Assembly: GCA_024231025.1 (NCBI GenBank)
Contig: JAAEQW010000139.1
Span: 7,851-71,850, forward strand
Direction: 5' to 3'
Source of the DNA: Candidatus Omnitrophota bacterium
GTDB taxonomy: Bacteria > Omnitrophota > Gorgyraeia > Duberdicusellales > 4484-171
DNA length: 64,000 nucleotides
Position numbers and translations under genes: made by a program. Shown in pieces: positions 39,001 through 64,000 of the stretch; within the stretch, counting starts at the first letter, position 1, and every line of letters begins with the position of its first letter. The notes beneath the pieces were generated by a model. That model worked only from the letters and a program-made list of their open reading frames with translations. It made no database searches and was not told the origin of the DNA.

Positions 39001-42000
39001 TTCTCTGACTTGATTACCGAACGCATAAATAGAATCCAGTAATAAAATATCAGAAGATGTTAGATGCAATTGCGATAGAGCCTCTTTTACCCGATACCAA
39101 TCAATCGCATCAGGATGATTAATATCTGGATTGCCCTTACCTGTCAACGGCCATTCTTCCTTGGGTTTCAAATATCGATTAACTTGAAAATGCTTAAACC
39201 TTTCGAGCTCAGAAGCTTTTCTTGCCCATTTGCTCTTTCCCGAACACTTTTCTCCCGCAACCAAAACAATACAACCTTCCTGGCCATCCATTAAAGTTTC
39301 CCTTAAGCTATTTAATGAATGTAAAACCGCTCTAGAGTAAGCTAATTCCACAGCCTCATTCTCTTGATGGGTTCGGCCATTCAACTCATGTACAAACACC
39401 GCAGTAAGATTATATTTAGGATTATTGAAGGCTGGTTGTTCAATATATAGGGCATTATTGGGTTGGTCATAATAGGCAGCAAAAGTAATTTGTTTACTCG
39501 TAATAACTATTACTTTAGGCGGACCACGTTTTGGATCAACTCTATCTTCTCTTTCTAGAAAGCTTATTGCCTTTTCCCGTGCTGGATTAATTAACTTATT
39601 TTCTTCTGCGATTGGCGCGCGAAATTCAACACTTCCGGTACGGTATTTATCCAACTGCGTTTGGGTTTGAGCCAAAGTATAGCCATTGTATCCGCCGTCT
39701 TTTGAGGAAACAGGATCATTACCATCCTTAGACCTATACTTAATTGCACCGCTTAGCTTGGCATAAAATGCCTCGATAGTTTCTTGCACAACAGCGTCTA
39801 ATTGCCCCTCTCTATTCGCAACGACAATAAAATCTCTTTCTTTGTAGTGCGCTAAATCTTTTGCGTCTCTCCTTGCGTTTACCTCGATCGCCCGAACGAT
39901 ATTTTCCTCGCTAACCGATTCACCTAACTGCGTTAGAGCCCAAATGGCTCTATCTCGAGACTGCGCACGAATGAGAAAAGAAAACCTTGCCTCAGGATGC
40001 TTATTTCGTCCCACCACAATAACCGGAGAAGAAAGAGACATTTCCTTAATTTGATCCTTCATACGGCTTGCCAATTTAGTCGCAACGGCTCTGTTGCTCC
40101 TCCAAGCAACATTAGCTGCACTAGTGATTTCTGGCTGCTCAATATCTTCGGTTACGTCTACTCCGTCAACAAACACTCTTTCTTGCACCATAGTAAAAGT
40201 TGTATTATTAATTAGTCTCAGCATTCCTGATCTGTCTGTTAAGCTAACCCCTTCGTTGAAAGCCTTATGGGTTATCGCCCGATATATCTTACCACGGTCA
40301 AAAACCTGACCGCTAATGCGTGCAGCAAACGCCCAAGCAATAGCAGATTTACCAGTATTACTCTTTCCGCAAACCGAAACAATTATGCCACGACTGCTCT
40401 TAGCACTATGTAAAGGCATATTGAACTGCTCAGGAGTAATCTTCCCCTCTAAAGTGCTAATCAATCCACAAACAACTTGTGCATATCTGTATTTACTTTT
40501 TTTAATCACCCTATCAGCTGTTTTACGCATCAGAGACATTAACTTATCGCTTAAAGAAACAATTTCTTCTGGCTGCCAGTTCTCCACCATATAATCAACG
40601 TATGATTTATAAGGCTCAATAAATTCGACTGCACGCCGCTCAATTCTTGGCCAAGCACGCACGTTAAAAAGTACAGAATCGCCCATCTTCACACCTCGGG
40701 CAATCCGCCGTAGTAATCTAATCGCTAAAGGCGCCTGAAAATAAACCTTAACAACCTCACGCTCTAGTCCGCAAGCTATCTCACCTGTCTCCTTACCAAG
40801 GGCATGCAAAGAATCTAACAATAGTATGTCACTGGTTCCAAGTTGTAGCATTTTTCCTGAACGCCTTGTTGTTCTATTGTTTACCTTGTCATAATTTGCC
40901 ATTTCTACAAAACCATTCTTAGATAACGCCTCTAAGTCTTCCTTCAACCATTCCCAGTTAATCGCACGAGGATGATCAGCATCTGGGTTACCGCTACCAT
41001 CTATAGGGCGATCTTCCTGGCATTTAAAATATCGATCGACAGGAAAATGCACAAATTCATTACGTCCATCAAGACTCCTTGCCCAGGTAGTTTTCCCTGA
41101 ACAGCTGCTTCCGGCAACTAAAACAATGGCGCCCTTATGGTCAACAGCTAAAGAATTCGCCAAGCTCTGCTGTGAATGCATTACTGGGTTATGTGGCGGT
41201 CTGATTTCGTGCAACCGCCCAATGAATGACTCTCTATTTTTCAAAAAGAGCTCTCGGAACGAAACAAGGTCATAAGAACCAAACAACTTTAAAAATGCAG
41301 CTCTTAGCTCTTGGGGAGTATACCCATCCGTAGGATTAGTGTCGATTCCGGCTAATTGTGTAGTATGATCATATAGCCTTTGATCGAAAAACTCTATCAT
41401 TGCCGGGATTATATCTTCTAGCTGCCGACCCTTTGAAATCACTACATCCTTGCGCGCATGTCTTACAATTGTTGTTCGAATATCACCATCAACCACCAAG
41501 ATCTCTCCGTCATCTTCGCTAACACCAAAACTCGCTAATGATCCAGGGTAACGATTCGGGTACATATCCGATCCTAGCACAACAACCGAACCCTGCCTTG
41601 CCTGTCTATCAACAGAATCGTTATATCCTGCCTCAAAGCTACTACTTAAATCAATTATTTTAGCGTCAATAATTCTTGCTAACTCATCAGCGATCGCTAG
41701 CTTTGCATTTTGTGAAGAACCGTAAATAGACACTATGATTCCTGTATCTAAAATGTTTTCTACGGCAGCAACTCCCAATCTAGTCATTTGTTCAATCGGT
41801 AGTTTTCGCCGTAAGGCACTAACCAATCTCGAAGCTAACCCTAAAGACTGCCGATCTCTTTTGGGATCCATTTTAGAAATCGCATCCTCTAGCAAAAGTC
41901 TAGCCGGCTCAGACCATTTAGATAATTCATCCTCACTCCAATTCTTTATTAAATAATCTGCAATATCCTTGCCTGGTTCAATAAACTCTGCGGCGCGATG

Positions 42001-45000
42001 CTCAGCCACAAAGAACTGGCTTAAAACAATCTGCGGCTTCATTGAGCGCTCTTGCGCATTTCTAACTACTTTTCTAAAAAACTTAATTTCCGAAGGAAGA
42101 TCAAGATAAACCTTAACGACTCTGCGCTTTAACTTAGAAAGTAAATCAACTAGCCTCCGATCAAAGGCATGAATTGAATCAATAACCAAAATGTCATTGG
42201 AACCCAATCGCACTTTTTGTCCTGTGCGTCGCTTCTTAAAGCTTGCAAAATCTACCTCGCCAGTCTCAATCAACGCAGTTACATCCGTACAAAACCATTC
42301 CCAATTAAAAGCATCAGGGTGTTCATGGTCTAACAAACCATCCCACCTCTTAGGGTGTTTAAAATAACTATGAAAATATTTATCCCCAATGAAACGCTTT
42401 ATCGTTGGTACCGAAGCACACCATGTTTTTACACACCTACTCTTACCTGCCGCACTAGAACCAACCAACAATACAACCGTTCCTGCTGGTTGCCCTGCAA
42501 TAGCCTTCGTTAACTGACTAATACTAGAAAACCGATGATCATCTCCAAAGGTCTGCCTAGCCAGGCTTGCCTCAAAGCATGCCTTCTTGGCTGTAAGCAG
42601 TTTTGACTGCTTTTTGCTTAATTTACCATCTTTAACCTCAGCTTTAGGGAATTTCCAATGTTCCCTTGAAAAAGCTTCACATGGTGTAATATTAGATTGC
42701 TCAGAATATTTATTGCTTAACTCCTTTATTCTGCTAAACATCTCACTGTAAAGTTCTACCAATAACGCTGAATCCGACGATAAACTTGTTGCGCTCTTGC
42801 GGAAACTTGCAATTCCCTGCAACGCTGCTATCGTAACTGGGTACATTGCTTCAGACAATAGTCTATCCGTACCCTTGCTAAGCTCTTCCTGTGTTCTTTG
42901 CCACTGACCATTCCAAAAATCTATAATCACCGTTTCCTCATAAGGTCGAAACAATATTCGTAACTCTCTTATTCTTTGGGAAATCTCAATCTCTCCTTTT
43001 AATGCTGAATTAGCTAACTGCCCAATAAAAACCATATATCCACTGGCATCGACAAAAGAGGCAATGTTTGGCCGAAGATATTCATGCACAAACAAATCGG
43101 TAACAATACCATCAACCGAACCGCAATTGATCATTTCCGGAAAAGCATAACTACCCTTATCTTTTATATCAATCAGTAAGCGAGCAATTTCACCGATCAA
43201 CTCTTGGGAAGCTGGCACATTAACATATGATTTAATTTGCATAAGCAATAATCGCAGAAGTTGTAAGTACTCCCCATAATCAGGGTGATTACTGTTTGCT
43301 GCCAGGGCACGGTCTGCTAGACGGATCTTTTCACTATCAAAAGTAATCGTTTCAAGCTGATGTGGACCAACCTCTTGATAAGCAAGTATTGGCTCCATCT
43401 CCTGCCAATCTTCAGGGATTTGAGACCAAGAAGATCCGGCAATAAAAGCATCCGCCGGAAATCTACTGCCATCATAAAAAGGCACAAAAGCAAAAGGCAT
43501 TTGAGAATCAAAGGCTTGATGGACTATTTTAGCCGGAATAACAACTCCACCAGTCTTTACCCAATCTTCGATAAACATAACCCCGCTTCCTTTAATCTCC
43601 TGACCAGTCCTGGTATAAGATAAAAGTTTTCGTAATAAAGGTAAGGTTGAATATTCAACCGGATTGTGTGCAAAATAAGCATTAGCTTTTTGTTCTGCGA
43701 TATCGGCAATCCTCCTTGCTTCCTTAATAGCCCTAATAACATTTATTTCTCCGCCTTCAACATCATTGAGGGCATCCTCTATCTTTTTATTCGGTAAATC
43801 TAGTTCTGGATAATTCAAGCATAAATCGTAAACACGATTAAGCCAGGTAAGCACTTCTTCTCTAAGTGTTGCATCAGCTATACCATTTTGCATTCTTCGC
43901 TTAACGGTTTGAATACTACAACCCCCTGTATCTCTAGCAGGAGAGGCAATTAATTGAGTGATTTCAAAGAAACGTCGGTCAATTCTACCATGCTCAACTA
44001 ATAATCTGACCGCTTCTTCTACACTGATACCAACTAAATCAGATAACTCAATGTCTAGCTCCCCTAATTCTTGTAGGCTGACCGATGAAGTAATATCGCC
44101 TGCCATGTCTTCGGTAACCATAATTGCCCGATCTTCTTGAGTAAGAATTTCATTTAATGCCGGAGCAATCGATGTGAATCTACCCAACTTAACATGAGCA
44201 ATATCCTTCTCTTTCGGCAAATACATTCCTAATTTTTCCTCAATCGTTTGCTTCAACTCACTTTCACGTAAAAACTCCAAAGCTTTGATGATTTTACTAT
44301 TTCTGGAAACAACAACTAACTTGTGACTCCTGCGCATTCTCAATAAAGAAATAATATAAAGCGGCAACTCCTGAGGTGTAACATATAATCCCCAGGCGCC
44401 TTTTTTAATAGCCTTATCAAGGGAAAAATCAGGATTTTTCATCTTATCTCTTATAAGATAATCTATGTAGCGAACTATTCTTTCTTGATTAGGAAAGGTG
44501 GATAAAGCTGTCCGACGGAAAGCAACTACTTCTTCTTCGCCTAACTTAAAAACTACCTGCAATCGAGTAAACGCAGCCTTAAGGCGTCTGTCAAGATCTT
44601 CAAATACCCTAACAAGAGGAACCTGCACTCGATCTTTAGCGATGTCTCTACTGTCTTTGGCTTCGGTGTTAACCTCAATCAACTCACCCTTACTATTAAA
44701 TCTCAATGATCTCCCCTCAGGGTCAAGAAAAATACTTTTCTTAAGCAATACTGCTGTCTTTGCCATGCCTAAGCCTTTTACTGAGTAGGCACCCGCAGCA
44801 GTGAGTATTGTTCGATCGTGCCCATTTGGCTGATCGCCAGCAATGAAAATATTCTCTTCCTCAGCTTCAACACCGCGAATTGCAGTTAACTGTTCTTGGA
44901 AATTAATTAATCCTTTTCTTTTAGCAGAACAAGTTATGTCTAAACGCCTAGATCTCGTCATGCGATCTCCTCGATGAACAAGAAAGTCAATAGTTATTCC

Positions 45001-48000
45001 CGGAAAGCCTTGGCTTATCAAACGCTGCCGAATAACATCTCGTAAATATTTAACATAGCTACGATTGTGCTCGCGACTTTCTGGTTTTACTATCCAGCGG
45101 TATGGCTTCTTATGAACTATTTTAAGCTCTAATCTTTTTGTAATCTTCAATAAAGCATTTTTTTCAGAAGCAGAAAATTCACTTCGACCATACAGCTTTC
45201 GCCCGCTGGCAGTAACTCCTTCGTTAGAATTATCCGGATAGATAAACATATTGTCGGCAGCGGCAGAATATGCATCACTTCCCATTATATGCTTCATTGG
45301 TTCAAGAAGAACATGCTTAGCTCCTTCAATCGGCCTAGCTGTATTGAACGATAATAATATTCCATGGTTTGCCAACTCTACCAAAAATCCTAGAATTTCA
45401 TGTGAAGGATAAAGAGTGCCGTCAATATCGCAATGCAAGGCAATTTTAGGTTTTGATAAAGCATCATGGGTATAGTTTATCTTCATAAATTCTTCAGTGA
45501 ACACCTCTATATCTCTAGTAAACAACTCTCCGCAAAAGCGTAAACCGTAAATGTCTATCATTCGTCGAAGCATCGCTTTAAAATCTTCGTGGTCAACATG
45601 TTTAATGCTATGAAGGAAAAATTGAAAAGTGTAAGGTTGATATTTCCGCGCAATGCTCACACAGTCACTACCCAAAAGTTGAATGGTGCTGCCTATATTT
45701 AAAACCGTATCCATCCTAATGCCATCAAAAGAAGTCGAAATATGTCCATTACAAAATTTTACCGTTTTCCGCCAACACGATTGCTCTCTATTGCTAACCT
45801 TCTTGGTAGGATCCAAATTGGCAACATGACGCACGAAAGAAGTAAAGGCATTTCGACCATTATCAGCGACTGTGAGCACCTCCACATCATTGTTAACCGC
45901 TGCCACAACCTTTACCTCCTTGCTCTCGCTCTGGGCATAGTCTGAAACTGCATTTATTATCATTAGCTCTCTTAAAAAAGCTCCCAATTGTTTAGCTGGA
46001 CTCGAATGAAAAAGTTGTCCCTTCTTTTTATTGTAATCTATGCGATGGCCAAGATTATGAGCACCAAAAGGATTATGAGGAGTGAAAATCTGTGCAGCCA
46101 TAAGTCTCAGAAAATCACGAAGTTCTTTGTCTCCTTTCAACTGCGGCGGCTCCGTTCCCATCTTCTCATACCAACCTCTTACTTTATCCAAAGTAAGTGC
46201 GGAATTCCTCCAATCAACTGAAGGCACTATTCCAACTCGACTACGAATTGCACGCCGCCTTCCACCTAACAAAGATGGTATTTTCCACCAATTATCATTA
46301 GATCTAATTAGTTCTTGAGGATCAAGATGCATAGCCGAAGCTACCCTAGTTTTATGATCAGCAGCAAAACACTCTACCTGAGGTCCTTTGTTGTTGTCGC
46401 ATCTTCGAAACACTTTATCACCGATTACACCATATTCACCGAAAAACCTAACTAGGCTAGCCAAATAATACACGATTGAACCAGCCGCCCAACTATCAAT
46501 AAATCTTATCTTAGAATGTGAGAAAATACCCGACTCTTTCAACTCCTCATAAAACTCTACCGCCCTCTTTTGAAAACTAATTTGACTAGTCATTAAAACA
46601 ATAAAATCACGATAGATTGACTCTCTAAATGCATCCTTGTTTTTAGCACGATGATGTTTTCGAATTATCTTCCTTATGTCATGGTATATAAAATCCATCT
46701 TGGCCCTGCTCAAATAATAAATCATTGAATCATTAGGAAAAATATCTAATTGATCCATCAAATACGCGGCAGTAAAATCTCGTCCACAATCTCTTGCCAG
46801 AAATACATTTATTTGGTTAGGATCAACTATCTGCTCAACAACATAAGGCGCCACACCAAACATCCCGATCAATGCCCTAGCTAAATTATCATTAGGATCA
46901 GAAAGCATCTTCACGAAAGAGTTTGCCGTAAGATTTAAAAGAACACTATCTAATTTTCCTAAGGGTTGGGATAAATCAATTTCCTTTGCCAGAGAACCGG
47001 CCTCGCGAACTACCTCACTTATTAACGCTTGTCGATTGCGAAATGAAAAAGACGCTTGCGGATAATAAAATTTGTCTACTCTGGAATCGCTGATTGGACG
47101 AGCATAAAATTCACTTTGAATATCGCTTTTAACGCCATGAAACTCTCGTAATAAACCAGCCTCAAATATTGCTCTCTGAGCTTCAATAGCAGTTAAAGAT
47201 ATTGAATCAATATTTTTATCTATACCTGGGGCAAATTTCAAATGGGCCTTATTTCGTGTTCGACACGGTAAAATATTAAACATCTCGTCATAATTCTGAG
47301 CTAATACCCCTATTGCCCCCATCATCTCGCCATAAGCCACTTTTAATCTCTCCGATTCAGTTGAAGAATCCGCTGCTAAATTACGAAACTCAACGATTGC
47401 TTCAATAGTTTTAATTGTAAACTCGGACATATTAATCTCCGTTAACCTACTAGCTCCTAGATTAATCTCTTTCGTCGTTTTTTGCCACTCATCTCGCCAA
47501 AAATTCACAATCGCCAGTTCTTCTTCGGCTCGGAATGATCCTCTCAACTTAATTAATTCTTGAGAAATCTTAATCTTATCGGTTAACACCAAGTTAACCA
47601 ATTTCTCGATAAAAGCTGTATAGCTAATAACATCTTTAAAGAAAGACACATTGGGTCGTAGATACTCTTTGATAAAACGAGCACTAATAAATCCATCTTT
47701 AATTTTTGCCCCAATTATCATTTGCCCATCATCACAGCTGCCCTCTTCCTTAACATCAATTAAAAAACGAATAATCTCAACCAAAACATCTTGCGCAACC
47801 ATCACATCAACTAAAGAGTTAATCTGCAATAAAACACTATAAATAAGCTCTAAATACTTATAGTAATCAAAGTAATTATCTAGGGCAACAACGTTCTTTG
47901 CGAGATATTTTTCTTGATTTTCGATGGTAATTTCCTCTAACTGATCTTTTTCAACTTCACGATAGGCAATAATTGGTTCCCAATCCTGCCAATCTTCTGG

Positions 48001-51000
48001 CAATCGCACTTCAGGAGCCGCCCGAAGGAAAACATTAGCAGGAAATCTGCTGCCATCATAGAAAGTTGCGAAAACAAATGGTATTGATGAATTGAAAGCT
48101 TGAGCAACCAATTTAGCGAAAGTGAAAACTCTTCCTTTGACTACGGAATCCTCTAAAAACATAACCCCATCTCTTTTTATCTTCTGCCCGGTTTGAGTAT
48201 AACCTAATAACTTCTGCAGCAAAGGTAAAGCCGAATACTTAACGGGATTATAGGCAAAAAATCTATTACCTGCCCTAGCAAGAACCTTGGCAATGTGGTT
48301 GGCTGAATGCAGTAAATCTTTAATATCCGAATCTCGTGCTTTAACGCGCTCTAAAACGCTGTCGATATCCCGAACATCTAACTCTAATTCTTGATACTGC
48401 AAAGCTAAAGTCCTAACTTCGTCGCACCAAACTTCCAATGCCGTTCGAACGTTCTCTGCCGACTCATCGCTCTTAAACATTGCCATAATTCTATCAATTC
48501 CAGATTGATCGTTGCCTTTTGTTGACTGTCCGATCAATCGGAAAATTTTAACAAAACGTTGATCAATCTGACCACGATCAACCAATAGCCTAATCGCTTC
48601 TTCTACACTAGTACCAACCAAATCAGATAACTCAATGCCTAACTCTTCTAATTCTTGCAGGCTGACCGATGAAGTAATATCGCCTGCCATGTCTTCAGTA
48701 ACCATAATTGCCCGATCTCCTTGAGTAAGAATTCCATTCATCGCTATGGCAATTGATCTAAGGCGGTCAATCCTAATATGAGGAATATCGCTCGCTTGGG
48801 GTAATGTCACCCCGAGTTGCTCCTGAATCATTCTACCAGCATCGCTACAACGCAAAGCGCCCAAAGCTTCAATAATCTTACTATTGCGAGAAACAACAAC
48901 TATTTTATGGTTACGATACGACCTTAATGCAGCAAGCATATAGGCTACAACTTTCCCTGGCGCAATATATAATCTTTTTTTGCTATCCTTCACCGCTTGT
49001 GCAAAAGACCTGTCACTATCTTTCACTTGGCTATCAATCAAGTAATCAATATAACGAATTGCCCTCTCCTGATTAGGAAAAGTAGACAGAACTTTTTCAC
49101 GAAAGGCGGTTAACTCTTTTTTAGTTAATCCGAAGACTAGGCGTAATTTAGTGAAGCTGTCGTCAATGCGCTCTGGGGTTACTTTAAAAACTCTTAAAGA
49201 AGTACGCGCAAAATATTTAGTTTCAATACTCTGATTCTCATCGTGAGTTTGGCCATTTAACTCATGAACAAGCACCGCATTAAGATTATACCTGGAATCG
49301 GTGAAAACCGGCTGTTCAATATATAGGGTATTATTGGGTTGGTCATAATAGGCAGCAAAAGTAATTTGTTTACTCGTAATAACTATTACTTTAGGCGGAC
49401 CGCGCGTTGGATCAACTCTGCCTTCTCTTTCTAGAAAGCTTATTGCCTTTTCCCGTGCCGGATTAATTAACATATTTTCTTCTGCGGTTGGTGTGCGAAA
49501 TTCTACACTTCCGGTACGGTATTTATCCAACTGCGTTTGGGTTTGAGCCAAGGTATAGCCATTGTATCCTGCATCTACACCCTTTGGACCATCATCCGCC
49601 TCATCCGCTTTCTCGCACAATTGCTTAAGGAATGAGCTTCTATTTTTCAAGAAAAGATCTCTAAAGGAATCGATACCGTAAGAGTCAATCAATTTTAAAA
49701 AGGCAACTCTTAATTGCTTACCGCTGTATCCATGTGTTGGATCAACGCCAGCGCCACCCAATTGAATTATATGCTGATAAAGACGGCTATCAAAGCATTG
49801 TAAAACAGCATCAGTTATTTTTTCAAATTCATCTTTGTTATTTCTTGCAATTACAACATCTTCAGTCGCACAATTCACAGTTTCTAATTCAATATCGCCA
49901 TCAACCACCAAGATCTCTCCGTCATCTTCGCTAACAACAAAGCTCGCTAATGACCCCGGGTAACGATTCGGGTACATATCCGATCCTAGCACAACAACCG
50001 AACCCTGCCTTGCTTGCTTATCAACAGAATCATTGTATCCTGCCTCAAGGCTACTACTTAAATCAATTATTTTAGCGTCAATAATTCTTGCTAATTCATC
50101 AGCAATCGCTAACTTTGCATTTTGTGAAGAACCGTAAATAGACACTATGATTCCTGTATCTAAAATGTTTTCTATGGCAGCAACTCCCAAGTGACTCATG
50201 CTTTCAATCGATAATCTCTTGTCTAGGGCATACGCTAATCTCGATGCCACTCCCAAAGCTTGCCGTTTCTTTTGCTTGTGCATTCTGTTAATGATATTCT
50301 CCAGCAATGGTCTTGCTTTCTCGTTCAAAGAAAGTAATTCTGACCCACTACTCGTTTCCATCCAGTAATCTGCATCAACTTTAAGGGGCTTAATAAATTC
50401 TGAGCCATGATATTCAATCATTGGATATTCATCAACAGCAATCCAAGCTTCCATATTGCGCTGGTGAGGATTTCTAACTATTCTCCTCAATAGCTCAACC
50501 ACCACAGGAGCCTCAAAATAAATTTTAACAACGTTGCAGTGCAAATCAGAAGCTATTCGATCCATTCGTTTATCAAAAGAATGAAGCGAATCAACAACTA
50601 AAATATTACCTGGATTAAATTGCACTGTGTATCCACTGCAACGTTTCCCAAATTCTGCGGTATCTACTCTTCCATTTTGAATAAGCGAAGCAATATCTTC
50701 TCCAAGCCATCTCCAACTGAATGCATCAGGATGTGCATGATTAAGTAAGCCATCTGGTCTCCTGGCAGAAGGTAAAACATATCTATCTCCTGGAAAACGT
50801 ACTGCATTGAGCAAAGAATGATTTTGCCCTATCCATCTACTTTTACCCGCAGCATTGCAACCGCAAAGTAATACTATGGTACCAGCAGGTTGCCTTATGA
50901 CCACTTCGTTCAACTGCCCAACGGTAACTTTTCTCGGACCAAGATTAACTCTTGATTTAAGGGCTTTCTTGATCGGTGAAACTGCCAAATCATAAGGGAC

Positions 51001-54000
51001 CTTAACATTACGTTTGCGCTTTTTGCCTATTCCCGGTGTTAACTTGTTAAGCGTATATCTGTGGAAATCACTACCGCCAGAAACCATCAGCCCATGTCTC
51101 TGCGCGAAACCTGACCAGTATTCATTGCTTTCTGCATTATGCTCAGAATGAAATGCTTCAATACCATCTAATCCGGCAGGAATCAATTTATCAATAATTG
51201 TCTTCCCCCACATCATCTTACTTAAACGCAATATCTCACGTTCCTCCAAACCCTGTCTGTGCCTTCTCTGAGAAATAAATCCTTTTTCCACCGCCCATTT
51301 CCAAACAAAATGCTTATCCGCCGGATGAGCAAAGAAAGCAAGACCTCCATATTTCTTAATCATTCTTATAACATCTACCGCAGGCCTAAATCCTTGCTTT
51401 GACTCTATCTCCTCTCTAATCCTAACCAACTCTTCTTGGAACTTCTGGTTTTGCCAATCAATACCATAACCTAAGATATGCGTTTCCCCACCATTGAGTT
51501 CTGCATGAAGCTCAACACCAGGGATAATTTCAACACCACATTCTTCGCCAACAACAATTGCCTCTTCAATAGAATCAACACTATTATGGTCAGTAATTGC
51601 GATTGCTTCTAACCCTAAATATAAAGCTGCCCTCACAAGATCTGTTGCGCTAAATCTACCATCGCTTGCAGGAGTATGGAGATGAAGATCAACACATCCT
51701 TTTCTTGCATTTCTATCTTTAGGTATCCTTATTTTCATCTTTCGTAATACATCAAAGGAACCTAATTTTCGATATAAAGCTGCTGCTTCTTGCTTCTGCG
51801 CATACGCTCCTGGAGCAAATTCAACAACAAACAAACGCACAAGATCAAACTTAGGATCATCTAAGGTTTCTCGTTTAATATACATTCTATTTATAAACTG
51901 ATCGTAACAAACAGCAAAAACAACTGTTTCATTCTCAATAATTATTGCTTCTGCCGGTCTGACATCTTGAGAAATTAAATCTACACCCCTTAGAAACGTT
52001 AAGGCTAAATCTTGAGCCAAATCAATCAATCTGCCTTCTCCAGCAGTAGGCTCCCGTAATTTTATTCCATCCTTGAAAAATAGCGCACGCGAAAACTCGT
52101 CTGTATCTTTACACCCAACCTTCTCAATGTGGCCTAAAGAAACTGCGGAGTTAGAGAAGTCTGTTGCTGCCTTTTGCATAAAAGGAATCGGACCAAAGAC
52201 AAGTTGAAACTGCCTGCTATTGTTGGTAGTGCTACATCCCGCATGCAAACTTTCATAAGTAACAACCCCGTTAGTTTGACAGGTCAAATCAACAAAAGCA
52301 TAGGCATCTTTGCGCTCAAAATACTGCCCCTCACCTTGAGATGAAATAACTGAAGAGTGGTAATCCTCCATTGGTTTATTCATTGGAATAACATGCCACT
52401 CAGATGGCAGCTCAATGCCATCGCTATTTAAACTCACCAAAGATAATGCTTTCATTACTTTAACTTTTAATTCTTCAAATTTCTGATATCCAAAAACAAC
52501 TTCCTCTATCGCTCTATCGGCTGTGCTTTGATTATAAACATCGTACTCTTCTCTAGTAAAAGCAAACCGCCCCAACAACTCGTGCGCCCCAACACTTCTG
52601 CCATTAAAAACGTCAGCTGTTTCTTTCTCTCGTGGAAATACAAAAATTTTATCTTGATAGCCACAAACATTAAAAGGAATATTATCATCCTGCAAAACAT
52701 CTACTATTCTATAAAGAATAGCCGCTTTAAGGTTGGGGTTATCTCCACTTATAACAAAGCCGTTAAGACCAGAAAGGCAAAATAAATCAACCTGACTAAA
52801 ATCATTTTTTGTTTCTCGACCGCTATTAGCACCTAGCTTTAACCCAAAAATAATTGCATTATTTCTATTAACTTTATCGACAAGACTTGACAATAATGGC
52901 CTTCTAAGTTTAATTGACTCTACCTTTTTCTTTGGTTTACGACTTCTAGAGCCAATACCAAAAATATGAGATCCGACATGCCTTGTATTTTTGAACCTCA
53001 TTCTATGACGCGTTGCAATAGCAAAACCGATTTTCTTCTTCCACAACCTCTCCCATCCAGTTTGCACTTTAGCATCAAAATCATAACTAGCCCAATTATT
53101 CGCCCCATGTTTCAAAGACCCGATCAACCGGAAAAATCTTTCTGCTCTATCAATCTCATTTTTTTCAACCGCACTAATAGCAGACTGATACAGTACAGGA
53201 AAACTTGTCGCTTCTATTAAACTAGCTTCAAATGCTGCCTTCTCTGTATGGATTTGGCTAAGTTGCTCATCCGTTAAATTATGATTAGTGCCCGGTTCAA
53301 ATTTTAAATAATCGTTTCTAGGACATCGACCTTGCCAGCTACCAAATTGTTGACTATACGTTTCCACCAACTCGCCCATACGACCTCGCATCTTCTGATA
53401 AAGCATGCCTGGATTCTGCGATTGCTCAAAGGAAACTCTCGCTTGTTGACGAAAATCAGCAATCGCCTGTAGCGTCGCGGTTGTAGCCGGCAACATCTTC
53501 TCAGATGTTAATCGCGCCGCGCCTTTTTCAAACTCCTCAATTGATTTATGCCATTCTTTTCTCCAAAAACGAATAATTTGTATCTCCTCATAGGCACGGA
53601 AGGTATTTCTTAATTCAATTAACCGCTGTGGAACTTCTATCTTCCCTTTTATTACTAACTTAGCTAATTTCACAATACATTTCACATACTTAAGTGAGTA
53701 ACGGGGATAAATTATATTCGGGCGAAGATATTCGCTTATAAACCTATCAGTAACCAAACCCTCAGGAATCTCTCTATTAACCATTGTCGTATCATACTCA
53801 AAATGTCCCCTTTGCTTTATGTCGATTAAAAATCGGGTAATTTCGCCGACTAATTGCTCAGAAAGATAAGCGCTGACTCCTCCCTTCACCTGATCAAACA
53901 GATTCCCTAAAAGCTCAATATATTCCCTGTATTCATCATCTTCACTATCAACGGTAATTTGTTTTTCTAAGCGCTTCTCCTCGCTATCGAAAGTTAACTC

Positions 54001-57000
54001 CCTTAAATCATAGCCTTCCCTTTCCGTAACTTCCTGATAGGCAATAATCGGTTCTAAATCCTGCCAATCTTCCGGTGGCCGCACGCGATTGCCTCCTTCA
54101 ATAAAAACATCAGCAGGAAAACGGCTATAGTCATAAAAAACTGCAAAGGCAACCGGTCCCGGCGAATTAAATGCCTGAGCAACTAGTTTGGCCGAAGCAT
54201 AAAGCCCACCGGTCCTTACCCAATCGTCGATAAACATAATTCCGCTTTCTCTAATGTATTGATAAGTCTTAGTATAACTTAGTAATTTTTGTATCAAAGG
54301 CATTGTCGAATATTCAATGACATTGCGGGAACAGTAAGTCTGACCTTGTCTGGTCACAATTTTCGCAATTGGACGAAGCAAGTTAAAAGAATCTTTAAGC
54401 CGTTCTACATTCGAAAAGCTAATCTCTTTATTAATTTCACCCACTCCCCGAATAGTTTCCTCTATATCTTGCTCAGCTAAATTTAATCCCGGATAACTAG
54501 TGGCTAAACTATGTACTCGCTCTAACCAAGCGCTCATCGCCTCTTTGGCTGCTTCTATTTTCTTTGTTCTTTTTTTCCTACTGCCCTTAGCGTGGACAGC
54601 ATCGTTTTTAAATCGATCAACGGTTTCAATACTGCTTCCACTGGAATCTCTACCTACAGTAGCAATCAAACATGTAAGCTCAATTAACCATTCCGGCATT
54701 GTACCCCGCGCGTCTAAAATATTAATTGCCTCTTCTAAGTTAAGACCAACTAGTTCTTGTGCGTTTATTGCTAATTTTTGCACACTTACTGCAGACATAA
54801 TATCTCCTACCATCTCTGCGGTAACCTCCTGCTTTCTTTCCTCCTCAGAAAGAATCCCATTTAAAGCCACAGCCAAAGGCAAAAATCTAGCTAATCGAAC
54901 GTGAGCAATATCTTTCCTTTTGGGCAATTTTACTCCAAGCTGATCCTCAAACATCTTTCCGGCTGCACTATTACGCAATGTCTCAATAATCTCAATTAAA
55001 GCTGTATTTCTTGAACAAATAACTAACTTTTGTTTGTTGTATGTCCTCAATAAAGAAATAAGATAAAGTGGCAATTCCTGATGCGCAATATAACTATTTT
55101 CAAAACCCCCATTTACTTCCTGCTCAAAAGGGCTTTCAGGTTTCTTGCGATGACGAAATAGTAAATAATCTAAATAGCGAATCAACCTTTCCCTGTTGGG
55201 GAAGTTGATCAAAGCCATATCACGAAAGGCAGAAAATTCTTCTTTGCCTACCGTAAAAGCATCTTGCACTCTTATAAAGGCCGCATTAAGAACATTTTCA
55301 CTAGCATCAAAAACCCTAGTTAAAGCCGGATCAGGATTAACATAGCACCCCTTGACCTTGGCCCCAATTTCATACTGTGCCTGGGCAACTTTATTCTCTT
55401 CAAGAGTGCCACCATTTAGTTCACGCACGAATACAGCGGCAAGGCCATGCTCTGGCTTATCAAAGAATGGCCGTTCTACATACAAAATATTACTAGCCTG
55501 ATCGTAACAAACAGCAGAAGCAACTTGCCTAGTCTCAATAATCACAATTTCCGGTAATTCATCAATCAACATCTTCCCTGGCAAAACTTGACGGCTTCTC
55601 TGCATGAACCTTAAAGCAAAGCCCCATTCCCGAGAAATTACTTTATTTTCGCTTTCACTAGCCGGACGAAATTCCACGATAAATCCGCGCAATAAATTTT
55701 GAAAGGCAGAATAACCGTAAAAATCAAATGTGTAATTAATATTAGTTACAAATTCACCCCACTCTCTAGATGTTGCCAAACCGAACTCATCACCTAACAT
55801 GTTTCTTAAACGAGCGTAAACTCCACTGCCTAAATATGCTAAAGCATCATTCCCCGGCCCAAAGACAGCTTCCCATGGCATAAATTGATCGCTCTCCATC
55901 TTACCTTTAGGCTCACCAGAAATAAGCCGCACACCTTCGTAATCTTCAACAGGAACTTCCACTAATTGACCATCTCGATTAAACCTTAAAACTTTACCCG
56001 CAGGATTAATAAAGGTAGTTTTACGGAATAAGGCTATCGTCTTGGCTGGACCAACACCTTCAACAGAATAGCCACCACGAATTGAAATTATTGGGCCATC
56101 ACTTCCTTGGGGATCATCGCCAGCAGTGAAAACATCTTCGTCATTGATACTGCGATGGTGATAACCGCTCAATCTTTGTTTAAAATCATTTAAGCCATCA
56201 CCCTTATCATTGCAAGCAACTTCAAGATATACTGTATCTTCTTGGTTATTACGGATTAAATTAACTCTCAATCTATCAAACCCTTCTTGATTCAATCGCG
56301 CATTCACTTCTGTTACTAATCGCAAAAGAGGCGCTTTATCTGCTTTTCTGCTCTTTTCGGCAACTTTTGCCAAAGCTCTATTGCCAGGACCAAGAATAAA
56401 CATACTAGGGAGGTTGCCTTCTCGAGCAAGATTTTTCAAAAATCGTGTTTCTTCCTCTGAAAATTTATCCTTAGGATAAATCCGCTCACCGGTAGCCAGA
56501 TAACCACTATTAGAACAATCCGTGTAAAAAAACATGCCCGGTGCTTGGCCATCATTAATCCTTTCTGCATCAGCCTTGCGTAATCTCTCAACCATTGCTA
56601 ATTCCTGCACCATCTTACATTCGTTAAAACTACGACCAGTATTAAAAGACACGCTTATGCCCTGATTAATTAACTGTTTTAAAAAGTTCTCTATTATCAG
56701 TGATGAATCGCAAGTTCCATCAATATCAAGCATCACCCCTCGTTTAGGATATTGTAGATCTTGATACAATTGTGTAATATTATTTGCCTCGCTAAAGAAT
56801 CTAGCAAACATTGGTCTCAATAGCGTAATGCCATAAACTTTGGTCATACGCAAGAAATTGGCTCTTAATTTATTCCAATCATACCTACTACCCAAACTAC
56901 CTTCAAAAATCGCCTTTTTCTCCATAAGCTCATCAACTCTATTTGGACTTAAACTATGATCACTACCAACTTCAAACTTTAAATAAAGTTTAGAAGGAGC

Positions 57001-60000
57001 CTCAGCCGGTAAAATATCAGCAGATTCAGTGTAACGGTCCACTAATCCTTTTATCTGGGCCATCATTCCAGAATAACTCTCCTTTAATCGACTCGGCTCA
57101 ATCGAGAATGTTTTTGCTTGCTGGCGAAAATGCGCAATCGCCTGCAACGTTGCGGTTGTAGCCGGCAGCATCTCCTCAGATGTTAATCGCGCCGCGCCTT
57201 TCTCGAACTCTTCGATTGATTTATGCCACTCGCTTCTCCAAAAACGAATAATTTGTATTTCCTCATAGGCACGGAAGGTATTTCTTAATTCGACTAGCCT
57301 TTCGGAAATTTCAATCTCCCCTTCCAGCAATAAATTAGCTAATTTCGCAATAAGCCTTACATAATCAGAAAGATGCTGGCGAGTAACTATGTTCGGACGA
57401 AGATAATCATTTATAAGAAGGCTGGTAATTGTTCCTTCTTTTGCTTCGCCATTGCCTATCATTTCAGCATAATTAAAACTCCCCTCGTTTTTAATATCAG
57501 TTAAAAAGCGTACGATTTCACCAATCAATTCCTGTGAAGCCGGTATATTAATAAGATTAGCAATCTGCTTTGATACAATCTGTATTAATTCCAAGTATTC
57601 ACCATATGCCTGATCACTGCTATCAATACTAGACATGGCTCTCAAACGCTTCTCCTCACTATCGAAAGTAACTGCCGCTAAACTATGCTCGGAAACCGGC
57701 TGATAAGCCAGCACCGGTTCTAAATCCTGCCAATCTTCAGGAATTTGAGCCCAAGAACAACCTTCAACAAAAGCATCAGCTGGAAAACGGCTGCCGTCAT
57801 AAAAAAGCGCAAAAACTAACGGTAAAGATGCACCAAAGGCTTGAGCAACAACTTTTGCCGGAACAAAAACGCTTCCGGTTCTTACCCAATCTTCCACAAA
57901 CATAATTCCGTTATCTCGTATATACTGTCCAGTTTGCGTATAAGCTAACAACTTCTGCAACAAAAACAATGTTGAATATTCAATTGGATTCCGAGCAAAA
58001 TAACTATTACCTTCTTTATTTATAAGCGAACTAAAACGTTTAATTTTCTTAAAAATTTTGCTAAACTCTAGGCTACCTTCATTAAGCTGATCGGAAAGTT
58101 GTTGAATTTGACAAACTGACAAATTCAATTCTGGATAATTAGCTGCTAAATTGCCTGCTCTTTTTAACCATTTTGATAAGGCATTCAATGTATCTTGCTG
58201 ATCCACATCGCTCCGTGTCATTCTATCAATTGCCTCAATACTTCCTTGATCCACACTTCTGTGTGACGGTTCAGTTAATTCTGTAACTTCAATAAAGCGT
58301 TGATCAATCTGACCACAATCAACTAACCGACCAACAACCTCAGCAAAACTAAGACCGATTAAATCTTCTGCGCATAGCCCTAATTCTGCTAATTTTTGCA
58401 TGCTTACTGCAGATACAATATCCCTTGCCACCTGCGCGGTAACTTTACTTTCTCTCTCCTCTTGTGTAAGAATTCCATTGATAGCCCAAGAAATCGGCAT
58501 AAATCTACCAACCTTAATATGGGCAATATCTTTTTCTTTAGGCAAAGTTACATTTAATTTCGTTTCGACTAATTGCCCAAGTCTACTGTCACGCAAAACA
58601 TTCAACGATTGTATTATTTTGCTATTTCTAGCAATAACAGCCACCTTATGATTTCTGTATGCTCTTAACAACGGCACTAGATAAACCGGAAATTCTTGAG
58701 GAGTGATACACAATGTTTTCAAGCTATCCTTTACGATTCGAGCAAAATTCCGATAAGGAAAATTTATCTTATCCTGGATCAAATAATCCAAATAACGCAC
58801 AAGTCTCTCTTGATTCGGAAAAGTAGATGTTACTGACTGACGAAATTCCGCCAATTCTTCTTCGTTCAATCCGAAAACTACTTTTGATCGACTAAAGCAA
58901 CTTTCGATTCGTGCCAAACTAACTTCAAACACTCTACCAACCGCGGCTTCACAATCTTTAACCTTCACTAGCTGATCTTCTTCGTTAAACCTTAATGCAC
59001 TCCCTTTTCGATCGATAAAGGTAGTCATCCTCAACAATGCAGCAGTTTTTACTGGGCCACTTCCTTCAACAGAATAGGAGCCGCGAGCTGAAAGTAACGG
59101 TCTATCATTTTCGTCCGGTGCATCAGCAGCGATAAAAATATCCTCGTCCTGGATACCGCATTGATGATCATCACCTAATATTTTTTTGAAATTCCCTAAA
59201 CCTTGAGATTTGTCATAGCAAGCTATTTCAATATAGGTTATTCCTTTAACTGACGAACCAAGTGAATTTACTTTAAGATGTCGAAATCCTGCCTCTTTTA
59301 ACTCGCGCATAAAAAACTCTTTCAAGGCTGATAAATATAACTTTTCACTCTTTTGCGAATATTTTGACAAATACCTGTATTTTAATAAATACTTATACCT
59401 AGTCGCATATGACACTCCCAAATCGAATCGCTCACTGAGTTCTTCAATAAAATGACTTTCCTCTTCAGTCAATAAAGGTCTAGGATAAAGGCGATCCCCC
59501 TTCCACCATTGGTTAGCGCCAATTACACAAGCATCATTAGCGCCTCGACCATAAAAAAACAAGCTCGCTGGTATCCCCGTAGAAATAGCTTGACTCTCTT
59601 TCTCCATAAGTTCCTTGATTATTGCTAGCTCTTCCTTTGTGCGGCAATCATCAATGCTGCGTGCCGTATTAAAAGCCACGGGAATAGCCCTTTTTTGCAA
59701 CTCAAACAAAATAGTCTTTAGTTTGCCACTGGGCACTGATGTTCCATCAAGATCAAGCATCACGCCCCGTTTAGGATGCTTCAACTTTTCAGATAGTTCA
59801 TCTTCAACCAGTTCATCCTTTTTGTTAAATCTGACAGCTTTGCCTTCAGGAGTAACAAATATACTCCGCCGCAATAACATCGCGGTTTTTATCGAACCAA
59901 TCCCTTTAACGGAATAGGAGCCACGAGCTGAAAGTAACGCTCGATCATTCCTTCGCGAATCATTCCCTGCAATAAAAATGTCCCTTTCATAAATCCCCAA

Positions 60001-63000
60001 TCTATTCTTTATATCATCTAACACTTTACTCGCATCATAACAAGCAATCTCAAGATAATCTGAGCCATTGTATACATCACGAAAAACATTTACTTTTAAA
60101 TCACTAAATCCTACTTTTTCTAATTCGCCACTAATAGTTTTTCTTAATTCAAATAAATCAGCTTCATCAATCGCCTCGCGTGGCCGCAACATATACTTAT
60201 ATTTCGTATGATGCCTCTTCTTAAAATTAAACCTCTCTACAAGATCTTGAATAAAATCATCTTGTATTTTTGAAAATTTTGGTTTGGAATAAAGCTTCCC
60301 ACGACAAGCATCCGAAGCCTTATTCCCTCCACGACAATAAAATAATACGGCAGGATTCTCCCCCTGAGAAACTCTCTCTTTTTCCCTATCTCTTAAATGG
60401 CTCATCATTGAACATCTTGGATCATTCTTAAACTCAGAAAGCCCACGCACCGTAGAAAAAGCCAAAGGAACGCCTCTCTCATGCAAAGCTAATACGAGGT
60501 CTCTCACCGTTGAAGATGATGTGCTTACTCCGTCAACACCAAGCAGAACCGCCTGTTTAGGCTGATTTAATTTTTCATCTATCTCTTCTATCTGCTCCCA
60601 TTCTCTACCAATTTGACAAAACAATCCCTCTTGCAAGCAATTTGAGCCGTAAATATCAAATGTAAGAGCAAGCTTGCCTGCAAACTCACTCAAATCCTTA
60701 AACGTACTCAAGCCAAACTCATCAATTAGCAAGCTCTTTAGACGCGTGTATGTTGCAACATCTAATAATTTTAAAACATCATCTTCTGCACCAAAGATAA
60801 TTTCCCATGGAATAACTTGGCTGTTTTCTGCATTACCATTACTTTTTTGAGAAATACGTTGAATAGCTTCATCCTTTGTGGTAGCAACCTCTATTAATTG
60901 ATCATCTCGATTAAATCTTAAAACTTTACCCGCAGGATCAATAAAAGTAGTTTTACGTAATAAAATTGCCGTCTTGGCTGGACCAACGTCTTCAACAGAA
61001 TAGCCACCACGAATTGAAATTATTGGACCATCACTTCCTTGGGGATCATCGCCAGCAGTAAAAACATCTTCGTCATTAATGCTGCGGCCGTGATGAGCGC
61101 TCAATCTTTGCTTAAAATCAACTAAACCTCTACCTTTGTCAAAACAAAGTATATCGAGAAGCTTGCTTGTTGAATCAACCATAGCATCCAGGGTCACTTT
61201 TAACCTACCGCACCCTGCCTGGATCAATCTGCCCTTAACTCGATCCATTAACTCATTTAGGCGCTCTCTGTCTTCTTCTTTACCCGATGCTGGAACTCCA
61301 GCCATCCATCTGCAATCAGTAATAAAGATCTGCGCAAGGCCAAGCTCCCTGGCAAATCCTTTTAAAAACAACGCTTCATCATCGGTGAATACATCTGAAT
61401 CATAAAGACGTCTGTGTGCAGCATCATGTGCCCGATTAGAACAACTAGTGTAGAAATATACCCTTGGTGTTTCTCCTTCAGCAAGCCTAATTTTTTCCTC
61501 ATTGAGTAATCTTTTAGTCATCGCAATATTAAACCCGCCTTGCCCCCTACAATCATCAAAACTGCGACCAGTATTGAAAGATACCGGTATATTATGGGTA
61601 ATTATTTGCCGTAAGAGAGATTCTATTTCCGGTGACGGTATCGACGTTGCATCGAGATCAAGCATCACGCCCCGTTTAGGATATTGTAAATTTTTATGCA
61701 ATTGAGTAATATTGTTTATTTCAGTAAGAAACTGAGTAAATATCTTCCGTAAAAGCGTAATGCCATAAACCTTAGCCATTCGTAAGAAGTTCCTTCGAAA
61801 CTTGCCCCAATCATGCCCATAGATTATTTCCATGATTTGGTTCTCGTGATGCGTTGCGCAATTTAACTCATGCACGAATACTGCGGGAAGATTATATTCA
61901 GGATTATTGAAGATTTGTTGTTCGATGTATAGGGCATTATCGGATTGGTCATAATAGGCAGCAAAAGTAATTTGTTTACTTGTAATGATTGTTACATTAG
62001 GCGGGCCGCGCGTTGGGTTAACTCTACCTTCTCTTTCCAAGAAGCTTATTGCTTCTTCTCGTGCTGGATTAATTAACTTATTTTCTTCTGCAGTTGGTGT
62101 GCGAAATTCTACACCTTCGATGCGGTATCTACCCAACTGCTCTTGGGTTTGAGCCAAGGCATAGCCATTGTAGCCTGCATCAACTTGGGTAGAGCGTGTT
62201 GGCAATGTATCTGAAGCTCTTACTATCTTGGCCTCAAATGTTGCTTTCTCAAAGGCAAGCTGGGCGAGTTGATGGTCAGTTAATTTGGAACTGGTGCCAA
62301 CAGCAAATTTTAAATGACGTTTTTCTGGACAATATCCCGGTAAAATATGAAACGTATCGCGAAATCCGCTGACTAAATCATCTATCTTAGCAATCATTTG
62401 CTGATATGGTTCAGTTAAATCAGCTGACTCTCCAGGTAAAACGCTTGCTTGCTGGCGAAAATGCGCAATCGCCTGCAATGTTGCGGTTGTAATCGGCAAC
62501 ATCTCCTCAGATGTCAATCGCGCCGCGCCTTTTTTGAACTCTCCGATTGATTTATGCCACTCGCTTCTCCAAAAACGAATAATTTGTATTTCTTCGTAAA
62601 CACGAAACAAATCTCTTAGCTCAATCAATCTCTTAGGAATACTAACCTCATTTTCAAGAGTTAGATTAATAATCTTAAAAACAAGTTCCATGTATCTATT
62701 AAAATATTTAGGGGCGGTTAAATTAGGGCGAAGATACTCATCAATGAAACGATTGGTGACAAATCCTCTTGGTGTCCCATGACTACCAATTATCATTCCA
62801 TGATATTTAAAACTTTCTTTCTTTTTTCGATCAATTGCGAAACGAAGGACCTCTCCAACAAATTGTGGTGAAACATATGTCATATTAATAAATCTTCTCA
62901 ACTCCTCAACTTTAGTCTCCATGAGATCTAAATATTCCAAGTAATCAGAATGGGTATTATCTGCTGTCATTTTTCCTTCTAGGCGCTTTTCTTCTGTGTC

Positions 63001-63996: not shown

Positions 63997-64000
63997 AGGG

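Follow-up and report, generated by a model that had tools for sequence, protein, structure and literature searches.

Probable gene conversion between diverged modules of a giant bacterial reading frame

Gene conversion within one long coding region is a textbook mechanism that is known from polyketide synthase (PKS) and silk genes, and the repeat regions of Gram-positive surface proteins homogenise similarly. In the present study, we analyzed a 64,000-nucleotide stretch of contig JAAEQW010000139.1 (assembly GCA_024231025.1, positions 7,851 to 71,850; hereafter the window), in which one giant gene carries dispersed repeats that are very probably the product of the same mechanism. The unusual element is the host gene. 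In PKS genes, duplicated regions occur in 93% of 203 clusters (Nivina et al. 2021, PMC8256042), and GRINS, genetic repeats whose nucleotide skews are intense, are defined as regions of >500 bp with >80% identity within a gene cluster and mean absolute GC and TA skews of >0.15 that set them apart from the remainder of the gene (PMC8256042). The window resembles these clusters in having dispersed direct repeats of >80% DNA identity between modules of one huge modular coding region; as there, the repeats contrast with more diverged paralogous sequence around them, and gene conversion is probably their explanation too. In PKS genes, however, the regions are mostly 0.3-1.4 kb long and often cover whole domains, whereas the tracts described here are of sub-domain size (0.15-0.34 kb). 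The host gene is neither a PKS nor a nonribosomal peptide synthetase (NRPS), since a Pfam search detected no such domains in it; instead, it encodes kinase-like, HAD-like, PHP and GGDEF domains together with mostly unannotated sequence. The longest region with at least 85% identity was 339 nt, and the longest blastn high-scoring segment pair (HSP) above 80% identity was 386 nt. On whole-tract values, no tract exceeded both the GC and the TA skew threshold: the two skews were 0.30 and 0.00 for the tract named G below, 0.02-0.09 and 0.18-0.21 for B, and 0.05-0.09 and 0.04-0.07 for D, with ORF-wide means of 0.22 and 0.12. An assignment to GRINS was therefore rejected, because the tracts are too short and their skews are ordinary for this gene.

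Spidroin genes (PMC3933166) offer a second comparison, in that the repeats of one very long gene are kept, by non-reciprocal recombination, at a similarity greater than expected for their age. In spidroins, whole tandem units are near-identical, which is true concerted evolution, whereas the units in the window are scattered, have been shuffled and differ strongly, and homogenisation touched only small patches of them, apparently some time ago. As to the host gene, giant genes of Candidatus Omnitrophota have been described as 'archaeovorins' and as a 'multi-enzyme metabolic cluster'. GGDEF, HAD_2 and a P-loop AAA-type NTPase are among the 20 most frequent domains of their products (10.1101/2023.11.21.568195), and the longest multi-enzyme giant contains a kinase/phosphotransferase cluster (10.64898/2026.06.07.730766). 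The gene in the window resembles them in its open reading frame (ORF) of tens of kb with many transmembrane (TM)-like segments, in HAD, GGDEF and P-loop kinase domains scattered through mostly Pfam-dark sequence, and in repeated domains whose nucleotide similarity has largely decayed. With at least 21,333 amino acids (aa), its product also exceeds the size by which giant genes are recognized (>10,000 aa). Its few homologues, described below, include pieces of giant proteins from Omnitrophota metagenome-assembled genomes. The gene is probably of the multi-enzyme kind described in Candidatus Omnitrophota, and its probable origin in that phylum follows from the carriers of these homologues. No SecA-DEAD-like, C39, S8 peptidase or dockerin domain was detected in the window by Pfam; both termini of the protein lie outside it, so that the gene may still belong to this class. 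Nielsen & Lui 2026 (10.64898/2026.06.07.730766) concluded that the repeat architecture of such genes is old and that its nucleotide similarity has decayed, a description that fits the bulk of the region analyzed here but not the putatively converted patches. Gene conversion and recombination are mentioned neither there nor in West-Roberts et al. 2023 (10.1101/2023.11.21.568195).

Repeat tracts within one giant reading frame

The minus strand of the window was free of stop codons from position 63999 to position 1, which gave a frame of 21,333 codons that extends beyond the window on either side. No other stop-free stretch of at least 300 codons exists in any frame of the window. The window is thus an internal piece of one giant gene of at least 21,333 codons. 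Self-blastn of the window returned 31 off-diagonal HSPs with E<1e-5 and scores of up to 488 bits. As a chance control, the ORF was shuffled by codon ten times; none of the shuffled versions produced an off-diagonal HSP below the E threshold of 1e-5, and their best score was at most 39 bits. The principal alignments joined 41479-41863 with 49891-50274 (88.6% over 386 nt), 39355-39693 with 49231-49569 (90.0% over 339 nt), 43961-44318 with 48545-48902 (76% overall) and 6509-6920 with 21002-21413 (77.5%). A third copy of the second family, at 61841-62175, was 84% and 81% identical to the other two. An ungapped scan of the whole window revealed that all repeats are direct, with offsets that are multiples of 3 throughout, and that inverted repeats are absent.

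A first-pass annotation of this DNA had proposed at least four repeat families with 88-95% identity inside one ORF, and listed four. The single minus-strand frame does hold every copy. The paired coordinates in that annotation were out of register, with identities of only 23-32% as given, and register shifts of 1-27 nt were needed. After a shift of just 1-6 nt, three families stood, namely 49310-49570 with 39440-39700 (94.3%), 49870-50210 with 41460-41800 (90.0%) and 48575-48735 with 43990-44150 (88.8%), whereas the fourth (20990-21430 with 6470-6910) reached 74.4% after its shift and rose to 84-86% only in a core of about 60-100 nt. A diverged third copy at 61900-62170 was confirmed (84-87% after the shift). 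Describing the copies as tens of kb apart was slightly generous, as the real spacing is 4.6-22.5 kb. The list was also incomplete by at least two families, which join 57106-57308 with 62437-62618 and 53441-53633 (87-90%) and 56008-56189 with 60940-61121 (89%).

The repeats lie in paralogous modules that we denote by letters. The tracts, all on the minus strand, are as follows.

49875-50213, minus: tract G, copy 1 (core 49891-50190, aa 4604-4703), in module G1, just C-terminal to the PRK-like kinase part
41463-41801, minus: tract G, copy 2 (core 41479-41778, aa 7408-7507), in module G2
49295-49581, minus: tract B, copy B4 (core 49300-49569, aa 4811-4900), inside domain B4 (49171-49605)
39419-39705, minus: tract B, copy B5 (core 39424-39693, aa 8103-8192), inside domain B5 (39295-39729)
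61886-62186, minus: older member of tract B, copy B1 (core 61906-62175, aa 609-698), inside domain B1 (61768-62211)
48580-48747, minus: tract at the E/X boundary, copy in E-X4 (core 48580-48732, aa 5085-5142)
43996-44163, minus: tract at the E/X boundary, copy in E-X5 (core 43996-44148, aa 6613-6670)
57106-57308, minus: tract in the X scaffold, copy X2 (aa 2231-2298), absent from the first-pass annotation
62437-62618, minus: tract in the X scaffold, copy X1 (aa 461-521), paired with X2
53441-53633, minus: older or weaker member of the X tract, copy X3 (aa 3456-3520)
56008-56190, minus: tract in the HAD-like D module, copy D4 (aa 2604-2664), absent from the first-pass annotation
60940-61122, minus: tract in the HAD-like D module, copy D1 (aa 960-1020), paired with D4
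20986-21444, minus: fourth family, copy 1 (aa 14186-14338), with the 84-86% core at 21019-21204
6493-6945, minus: fourth family, copy 2 (aa 19019-19169), found by self-blastn, self-blastp and the ungapped scan

To compare the tracts with their surroundings, the paralogous modules were codon-aligned, and nonsynonymous and synonymous divergence (dN and dS) were calculated in sliding windows by the Nei-Gojobori method. Nucleotide identity rose from about 0.55-0.6 to 0.92-0.95 in the tracts, and dS fell from above 1 or saturation to 0.13-0.25. For the G pair, flanking windows showed 33-53% amino-acid identity, a proportion of synonymous differences (pS) of 0.4-1.0 and dS values that were mostly above 1 or saturated, whereas aa 4601-4700 and 7405-7504 shared 93-97% amino-acid and 93-95% nucleotide identity with a dS of 0.13-0.23. 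The same picture was obtained for B4/B5, E/X, X1/X2 and D1/D4. Within the tract cores, dS was 0.18-0.35, compared with 1.1 to saturation in the flanks. The G cores were 95.0% identical (15 differences in 300 nt; dS 0.18, dN 0.017), while the G flanks had 44% amino-acid identity and a dS of 1.95. The cores of B4 and B5 were 93.0% identical (19 differences in 270 nt, dS 0.21), those of E/X 90.2% over 153 nt (dS 0.35 against 2.0 in the flanks), X2 and X1 90.6% over 159 nt (dS 0.25), and D4 and D1 88.5% over 183 nt (dS 0.26). The core of B1 was more distant, at 85% over 270 nt from both B4 and B5 (dS 0.42-0.44), and X3 was 87% identical to X2 (dS 0.54-0.68, dN 0.05). These results confirmed that tract identity is well above that of the surrounding paralogous sequence.

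The effect of protein conservation was removed by a codon-identity test, in which only positions with the same degenerate amino acid in both copies were counted. Identical codons made up 87/98 of such positions in the G tract, compared with 67/123 in the flanking sequence (Fisher p 2.6e-8). The corresponding counts were 38/46 and 17/42 for E/X (p 6e-5), 42/49 and 67/131 for X (p 1.5e-5), and 60/68 and 52/91 for D (p 1.9e-5). Independent draws on the codon usage of the gene would give an identity of 0.41. The G alignment was free of gaps across both tract edges, which indicates that a homologous stretch of equal length was replaced and not inserted. The G, X, D and E/X tracts were nested in colinear alignments of 40-55% amino-acid identity with gap-free edges; this held only partially for B. 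As an internal control, X4, X5, B2, B3 and G' were compared in the same columns, where they showed 29-52% amino-acid identity and a dS of about 1 or more. In the B segment, B2 (55330-55758) and B3 (51730-52116) reached only 30-34% amino-acid identity, and in the X segment, X4 and X5 reached only 44-52%, with saturated dS. The tracts are therefore not universally constrained cores, and each patch is confined to certain pairs or trios of paralogues. Among the mismatches in tracts, 73/85 (86%) were transitions, while the G flanks contained 197 transitions and 162 transversions; the excess in the tracts marks their divergence as young and unsaturated. The two regions at 47-51 kb and 39-45 kb are joined by the G, B and E/X tracts alike, in permuted order and at offsets of 2804, 3292 and 1528 codons. 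With three different diagonals and a permuted order, they are not remnants of one colinear duplication. Collectively, these findings from the assembled sequence argue strongly for gene conversion between old paralogous modules, which we regard as very probably the correct explanation. The first-pass annotation had proposed the same process, and the drop in dS, the sharp gap-free edges and the divergence of the same segment in other paralogues make it the best explanation.

Alternative explanations and timing

Other processes could also produce similar stretches within one gene. Recent duplication and insertion of small domain cassettes by illegitimate recombination would apply mainly to the B domain. 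Its copies sit after X, D, F and kinase modules, the sequence immediately outside B4 and B5 could not be aligned (about 20% amino-acid identity), and B1, B4 and B5 form a young subgroup relative to B2 and B3. However, longer colinear alignments surround the G, X, D and E/X tracts without an indel at the edge, which indicates replacement, and even within B the identity steps down at both edges (dS 0.5-1.0 in the outer 15-30 codons), as expected of a nested tract; insertion of cassettes is an unlikely account of the tracts. It is also conceivable that purifying selection on the protein sequence of module cores, perhaps together with codon bias, kept the copies alike without any recombination. 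The tracts do carry conserved motifs that are kept in outside homologues, for example FWRxEW and RLTS in X and ITFAAYYD and VFVHELN in B, and their dN/dS is 0.2-0.4. Selection on the protein would leave dS unlowered, yet dS was 5- to 10-fold lower in the tracts. Furthermore, codon identity at shared residues was 83-89% in the four tested tracts, against 40-57% in the flanks and 41% expected, and the other paralogues have not conserved the segment, which makes selection without recombination highly improbable.

An artefact of assembly or polishing, in which reads of one module were placed on another, deserves attention, as the sequence is probably metagenomic and giant repetitive genes are hard to assemble (10.1101/2023.11.21.568195). 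Collapse or mis-polishing would give identical copies, whereas these differ by 5-12%, mostly in third-position transitions. The frame is also intact over 21,333 codons, and the longest exact repeat of 72 nt gives an assembler little to mistake, so we judge an artefact very unlikely. The paired similar stretches of a few hundred bases within a large protein gene recall the template-variable repeat pairs of a diversity-generating retroelement (DGR) or a different system of targeted mutagenesis, and DGRs are common in small-celled uncultured bacteria. The mismatches, however, showed no adenine bias in either copy and were spread over all four bases with 86% transitions. Both copies are in-frame coding parts of one ORF, the tracts belong to several unrelated families, and Pfam matched no reverse transcriptase anywhere in the 21,333 aa of the window. 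A DGR repeat pair was rejected on the mismatch spectrum and appears vanishingly improbable.

Several observations weigh against gene conversion as the explanation or limit its reach. Searches of GTDB genomes, JGI metagenomes and the protein libraries yielded no orthologous locus from a related genome. The flank contrast of B4-B5 gave a Fisher p of only 0.037, with B flanks that were too short or non-homologous; for this family, a recent duplication and insertion of the entire small domain may be the explanation. The synonymous contrast was weak at X3 (Fisher p=0.14), where conversion is not shown, and weak in the fourth family, with a dS of 0.43 in the tract and 1.45 in the flank (Fisher p=0.06). 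No tract was more than 95% identical and pS was alike in the five youngest tracts (0.16-0.28; chi-square p=0.68 for homogeneity), so that there was no sign of continuing conversion. As to the host, only 6/10 of the looked-up homologues carried an Omnitrophota label.

These values also bear on the age of the tracts. In the first-pass annotation, the conversion was called recent, which holds relative to the flanks only and does not extend to an absolute sense, given the identities and the homogeneous pS. They suggest that one older conversion episode, or rare events, fits better than continuing homogenisation. The annotation further inferred concerted evolution of modules, which overstated the case, as only patches of 50-110 codons are homogenised and whole modules remain at 30-55% amino-acid identity with saturated dS. 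Its warning that short-read assemblies of the locus are unreliable was likewise too strong. At 72 nt, even the longest exact repeat fits inside a 150-nt read and inside the larger k-mers in common use by assemblers, and only five exact repeats reach at least 45 nt.

Gene conversion suggests the following history. The 5' 26 kb of the coding sequence (window 37738-63999) was probably built long ago by repeated duplication and shuffling of modules, with the helical E-X scaffold, the HAD-like C/D modules, uridine-kinase-like and cytidylate-kinase-like P-loop units and the putatively zincin-like junction domain B as building blocks. The module paralogues have diverged to 30-55% amino-acid identity, with saturation of synonymous sites. 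Later, stretches of 150-340 nt were probably overwritten by the homologous stretch of another module of the same gene, at no fewer than five site pairs. Each replacement would have kept frame and length by non-reciprocal homologous recombination, probably seeded in locally similar sequence. Since then, the converted patches would have gained 5-12% differences, mostly third-position transitions. About 25 bp is the minimum generally quoted for RecA-dependent recombination in E. coli. The exact runs of 25-72 nt in these repeats make it plausible that they are RecA substrates.

Module architecture, junction domain B and relatives

The modules were delimited by chunked self-blastp, which yielded 57 off-diagonal module pairs, mostly with 26-57% amino-acid identity and with a few short segments at 62-76%.

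37738-63999, minus: mosaic of shuffled paralogous modules (aa 1-8754)

The E-X module is mostly helical, spans about 700 aa and occurs in five copies. The C/D modules are HAD-like with a DLDGT-type motif and occur in five or more copies. The G, G' and H modules resemble P-loop nucleotide kinases, with three G-type uridine-kinase-like units, and the F module is present twice. The order of modules differs between super-modules, which indicates shuffling and not merely tandem duplication. The rest of the ORF is essentially unique, except for a similarity between aa 9722-9887 and aa 10975-11144 and the fourth family (aa 14186-14338 and aa 19019-19169). An AlphaFold2 model of the E-X module was of moderate quality (pLDDT 69, pTM 0.48), and Foldseek gave no meaningful PDB match for it (best E=0.2).

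The B domain is about 145 aa long and recurs at module junctions, with five copies in the window.

61768-62211, minus: domain B1
55330-55758, minus: domain B2
51730-52116, minus: domain B3
49171-49605, minus: domain B4
39295-39729, minus: domain B5

The B alignment had no sequence match in Pfam or the PDB. Its AlphaFold model was confident (pLDDT 88.6), and the best Foldseek matches in the PDB were small zinc metallopeptidases without exception, namely selecase (4qhi/4qhf), abylysin, jannalysin, the M48 protease BepA and Wss1. These matches were weak, with a best E of 7.5e-3 and TM-scores of 0.45 (query) and 0.62 (target). Like the minigluzincins (selecase, proabylysin and projannalysin), the B model places a conserved H-E pair at the C-terminal end of the helix that follows a three-stranded sheet. 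Unlike them, B has no HExxH zinc-binding motif but VFVHELNGxTHxEN, with the second histidine at i+7. The homogenised copies B1, B4 and B5 have retained this motif, whereas it is degenerate in B2 and B3, which lack the histidines. The model weakly suggests that B is a zincin-like domain. We speculate that B could be a processing protease that cuts a giant polyprotein.

Homologues of the region were rare. With aa 4401-4940 as the query, a word-index homologue search and a search of GTDB genome contigs gave no match, and phmmer with aa 4401-5600 gave only 32 matches among 1.84 billion representative proteins. Ten of the best matches were looked up: six were labelled Candidatus Omnitrophota or Omnitrophica, two only 'bacterium' and two had no name. 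Five of the six Omnitrophota-labelled proteins are partial and take up nearly all of their short contigs, which marks them as pieces of giant genes; the remaining one (P0011, 5,669 aa) carries no partial label. The B domain was found in about 17 other proteins among the matches, including all six of the Omnitrophota-labelled ones looked up, typically between enzyme modules. Among the search matches outside the window, B occurred only in large proteins, and those with a phylum label came from Omnitrophota metagenome-assembled genomes. A search with a narrower B alignment returned one GTDB locus (L001, the contig of P0004) and one JGI metagenome locus (L002). In L001, the two B copies were only 68% identical over 153 nt and thus provided no independent example of conversion.

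A stand-alone E-X homologue of 677 aa (P0003) was encoded on a 70.7-kb ENA metagenome contig (L003). At 8011-12034 of this contig, three consecutive separate genes are colinear with aa 5757-7116 of the giant protein (window 42652-46731).

287-aa gene of L003: matches aa 5757-6025 of the giant protein
361-aa gene of L003: matches aa 6086-6400 and all C/D modules
677-aa gene of L003: matches every E-X module

The neighbouring genes on L003 encode methyltransferases, PhyH, HAD and NTP_transf_5; a further locus (L004) is the same region from another assembly and gives no independent context. Given the colinearity with three separate genes, the super-module looks like a small operon that was fused and iterated.

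Pfam coverage of the ORF was sparse and consisted of PHP, PRK/uridine kinase, cytidylate kinase, HAD and GGDEF matches, with the rest mostly unannotated. In single-module Pfam searches at E up to 0.1, there was no match for D, F, the G tract, the J module or aa 5599-6204, and the E module gave only a chance-level match (E 0.07). The Pfam domains and the tandem repeats were located as follows.

51499-51690, minus: N-terminal part of a PHP phosphoesterase domain (aa 4104-4167)
aa 7200-8450, minus: PRK/uridine-kinase, cytidylate-kinase and other P-loop kinase matches
aa 8795-8990, minus: HAD hydrolase
13678-14190, minus: GGDEF diguanylate-cyclase domain (aa 16604-16774, Pfam E 4e-35)
18064-18212: in-frame tandem repeat, period 54, 2.8 copies, 88% matches
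29221-29347: in-frame tandem repeat, period 51, 2.5 copies, 77% matches
15470-15515: in-frame tandem repeat inside a hydrophobic segment, period 18, 2.6 copies, 89% matches

A Kyte-Doolittle scan, a crude method compared with a dedicated predictor, marked 16 hydrophobic TM-like segments at aa 9059-19910 (window 4270-36825), of which eight are clustered at aa 9059-9697 (window 34909-36825). Both copies of the fourth family lie about 50 aa C-terminal to such a segment (aa 14098-14139 and aa 18947-18969). The hydropathy scan placed none in the repeat-rich first 8,750 or so residues, which would therefore make up a single soluble region of great length, on one side of the membrane. GC content is even along the window (0.37-0.42), and the coding strand is G-rich, with a GC skew of about +0.2. 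On the plus strand, the only ORFs of at least 150 aa were at 22901-23605 and 30971-31426; both are antisense inside the giant ORF and are probably spurious chance frames.

Implications for giant genes

Giant bacterial genes were discovered only recently and are poorly understood, and the available surveys treat their internal repeats as ancient and fully diverged. In the window, non-reciprocal recombination has probably also acted on sub-domain patches, and module phylogenies drawn from giant genes can therefore mislead locally. At these direct repeats, which are in frame and share identical stretches as long as 72 nt, recombination could remove or duplicate module blocks while preserving the reading frame. 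At their length and divergence, the repeats pose no threat to a modern assembly, and the locus need not be distrusted on that account. The conversion finding itself is a useful annotation rather than a surprise; the B junction domain and the possible origin from a fused operon are more directly relevant to the construction and use of giant proteins.

A broader reading, which we consider doubtful, would join these elements. Giant Omnitrophota genes would be fused and iterated operons, whose cassette of two to three genes exists unfused elsewhere. The junctions would be formed by B, a previously undescribed zincin-like domain, which could cut the polyprotein into working enzymes, and intragenic conversion would homogenise selected sub-domains and those junction domains that are catalytically intact. 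If this were true, conversion would be part of how giant genes stay functional and evolve, as a counterpart to the role proposed for GRINS in PKS genes.

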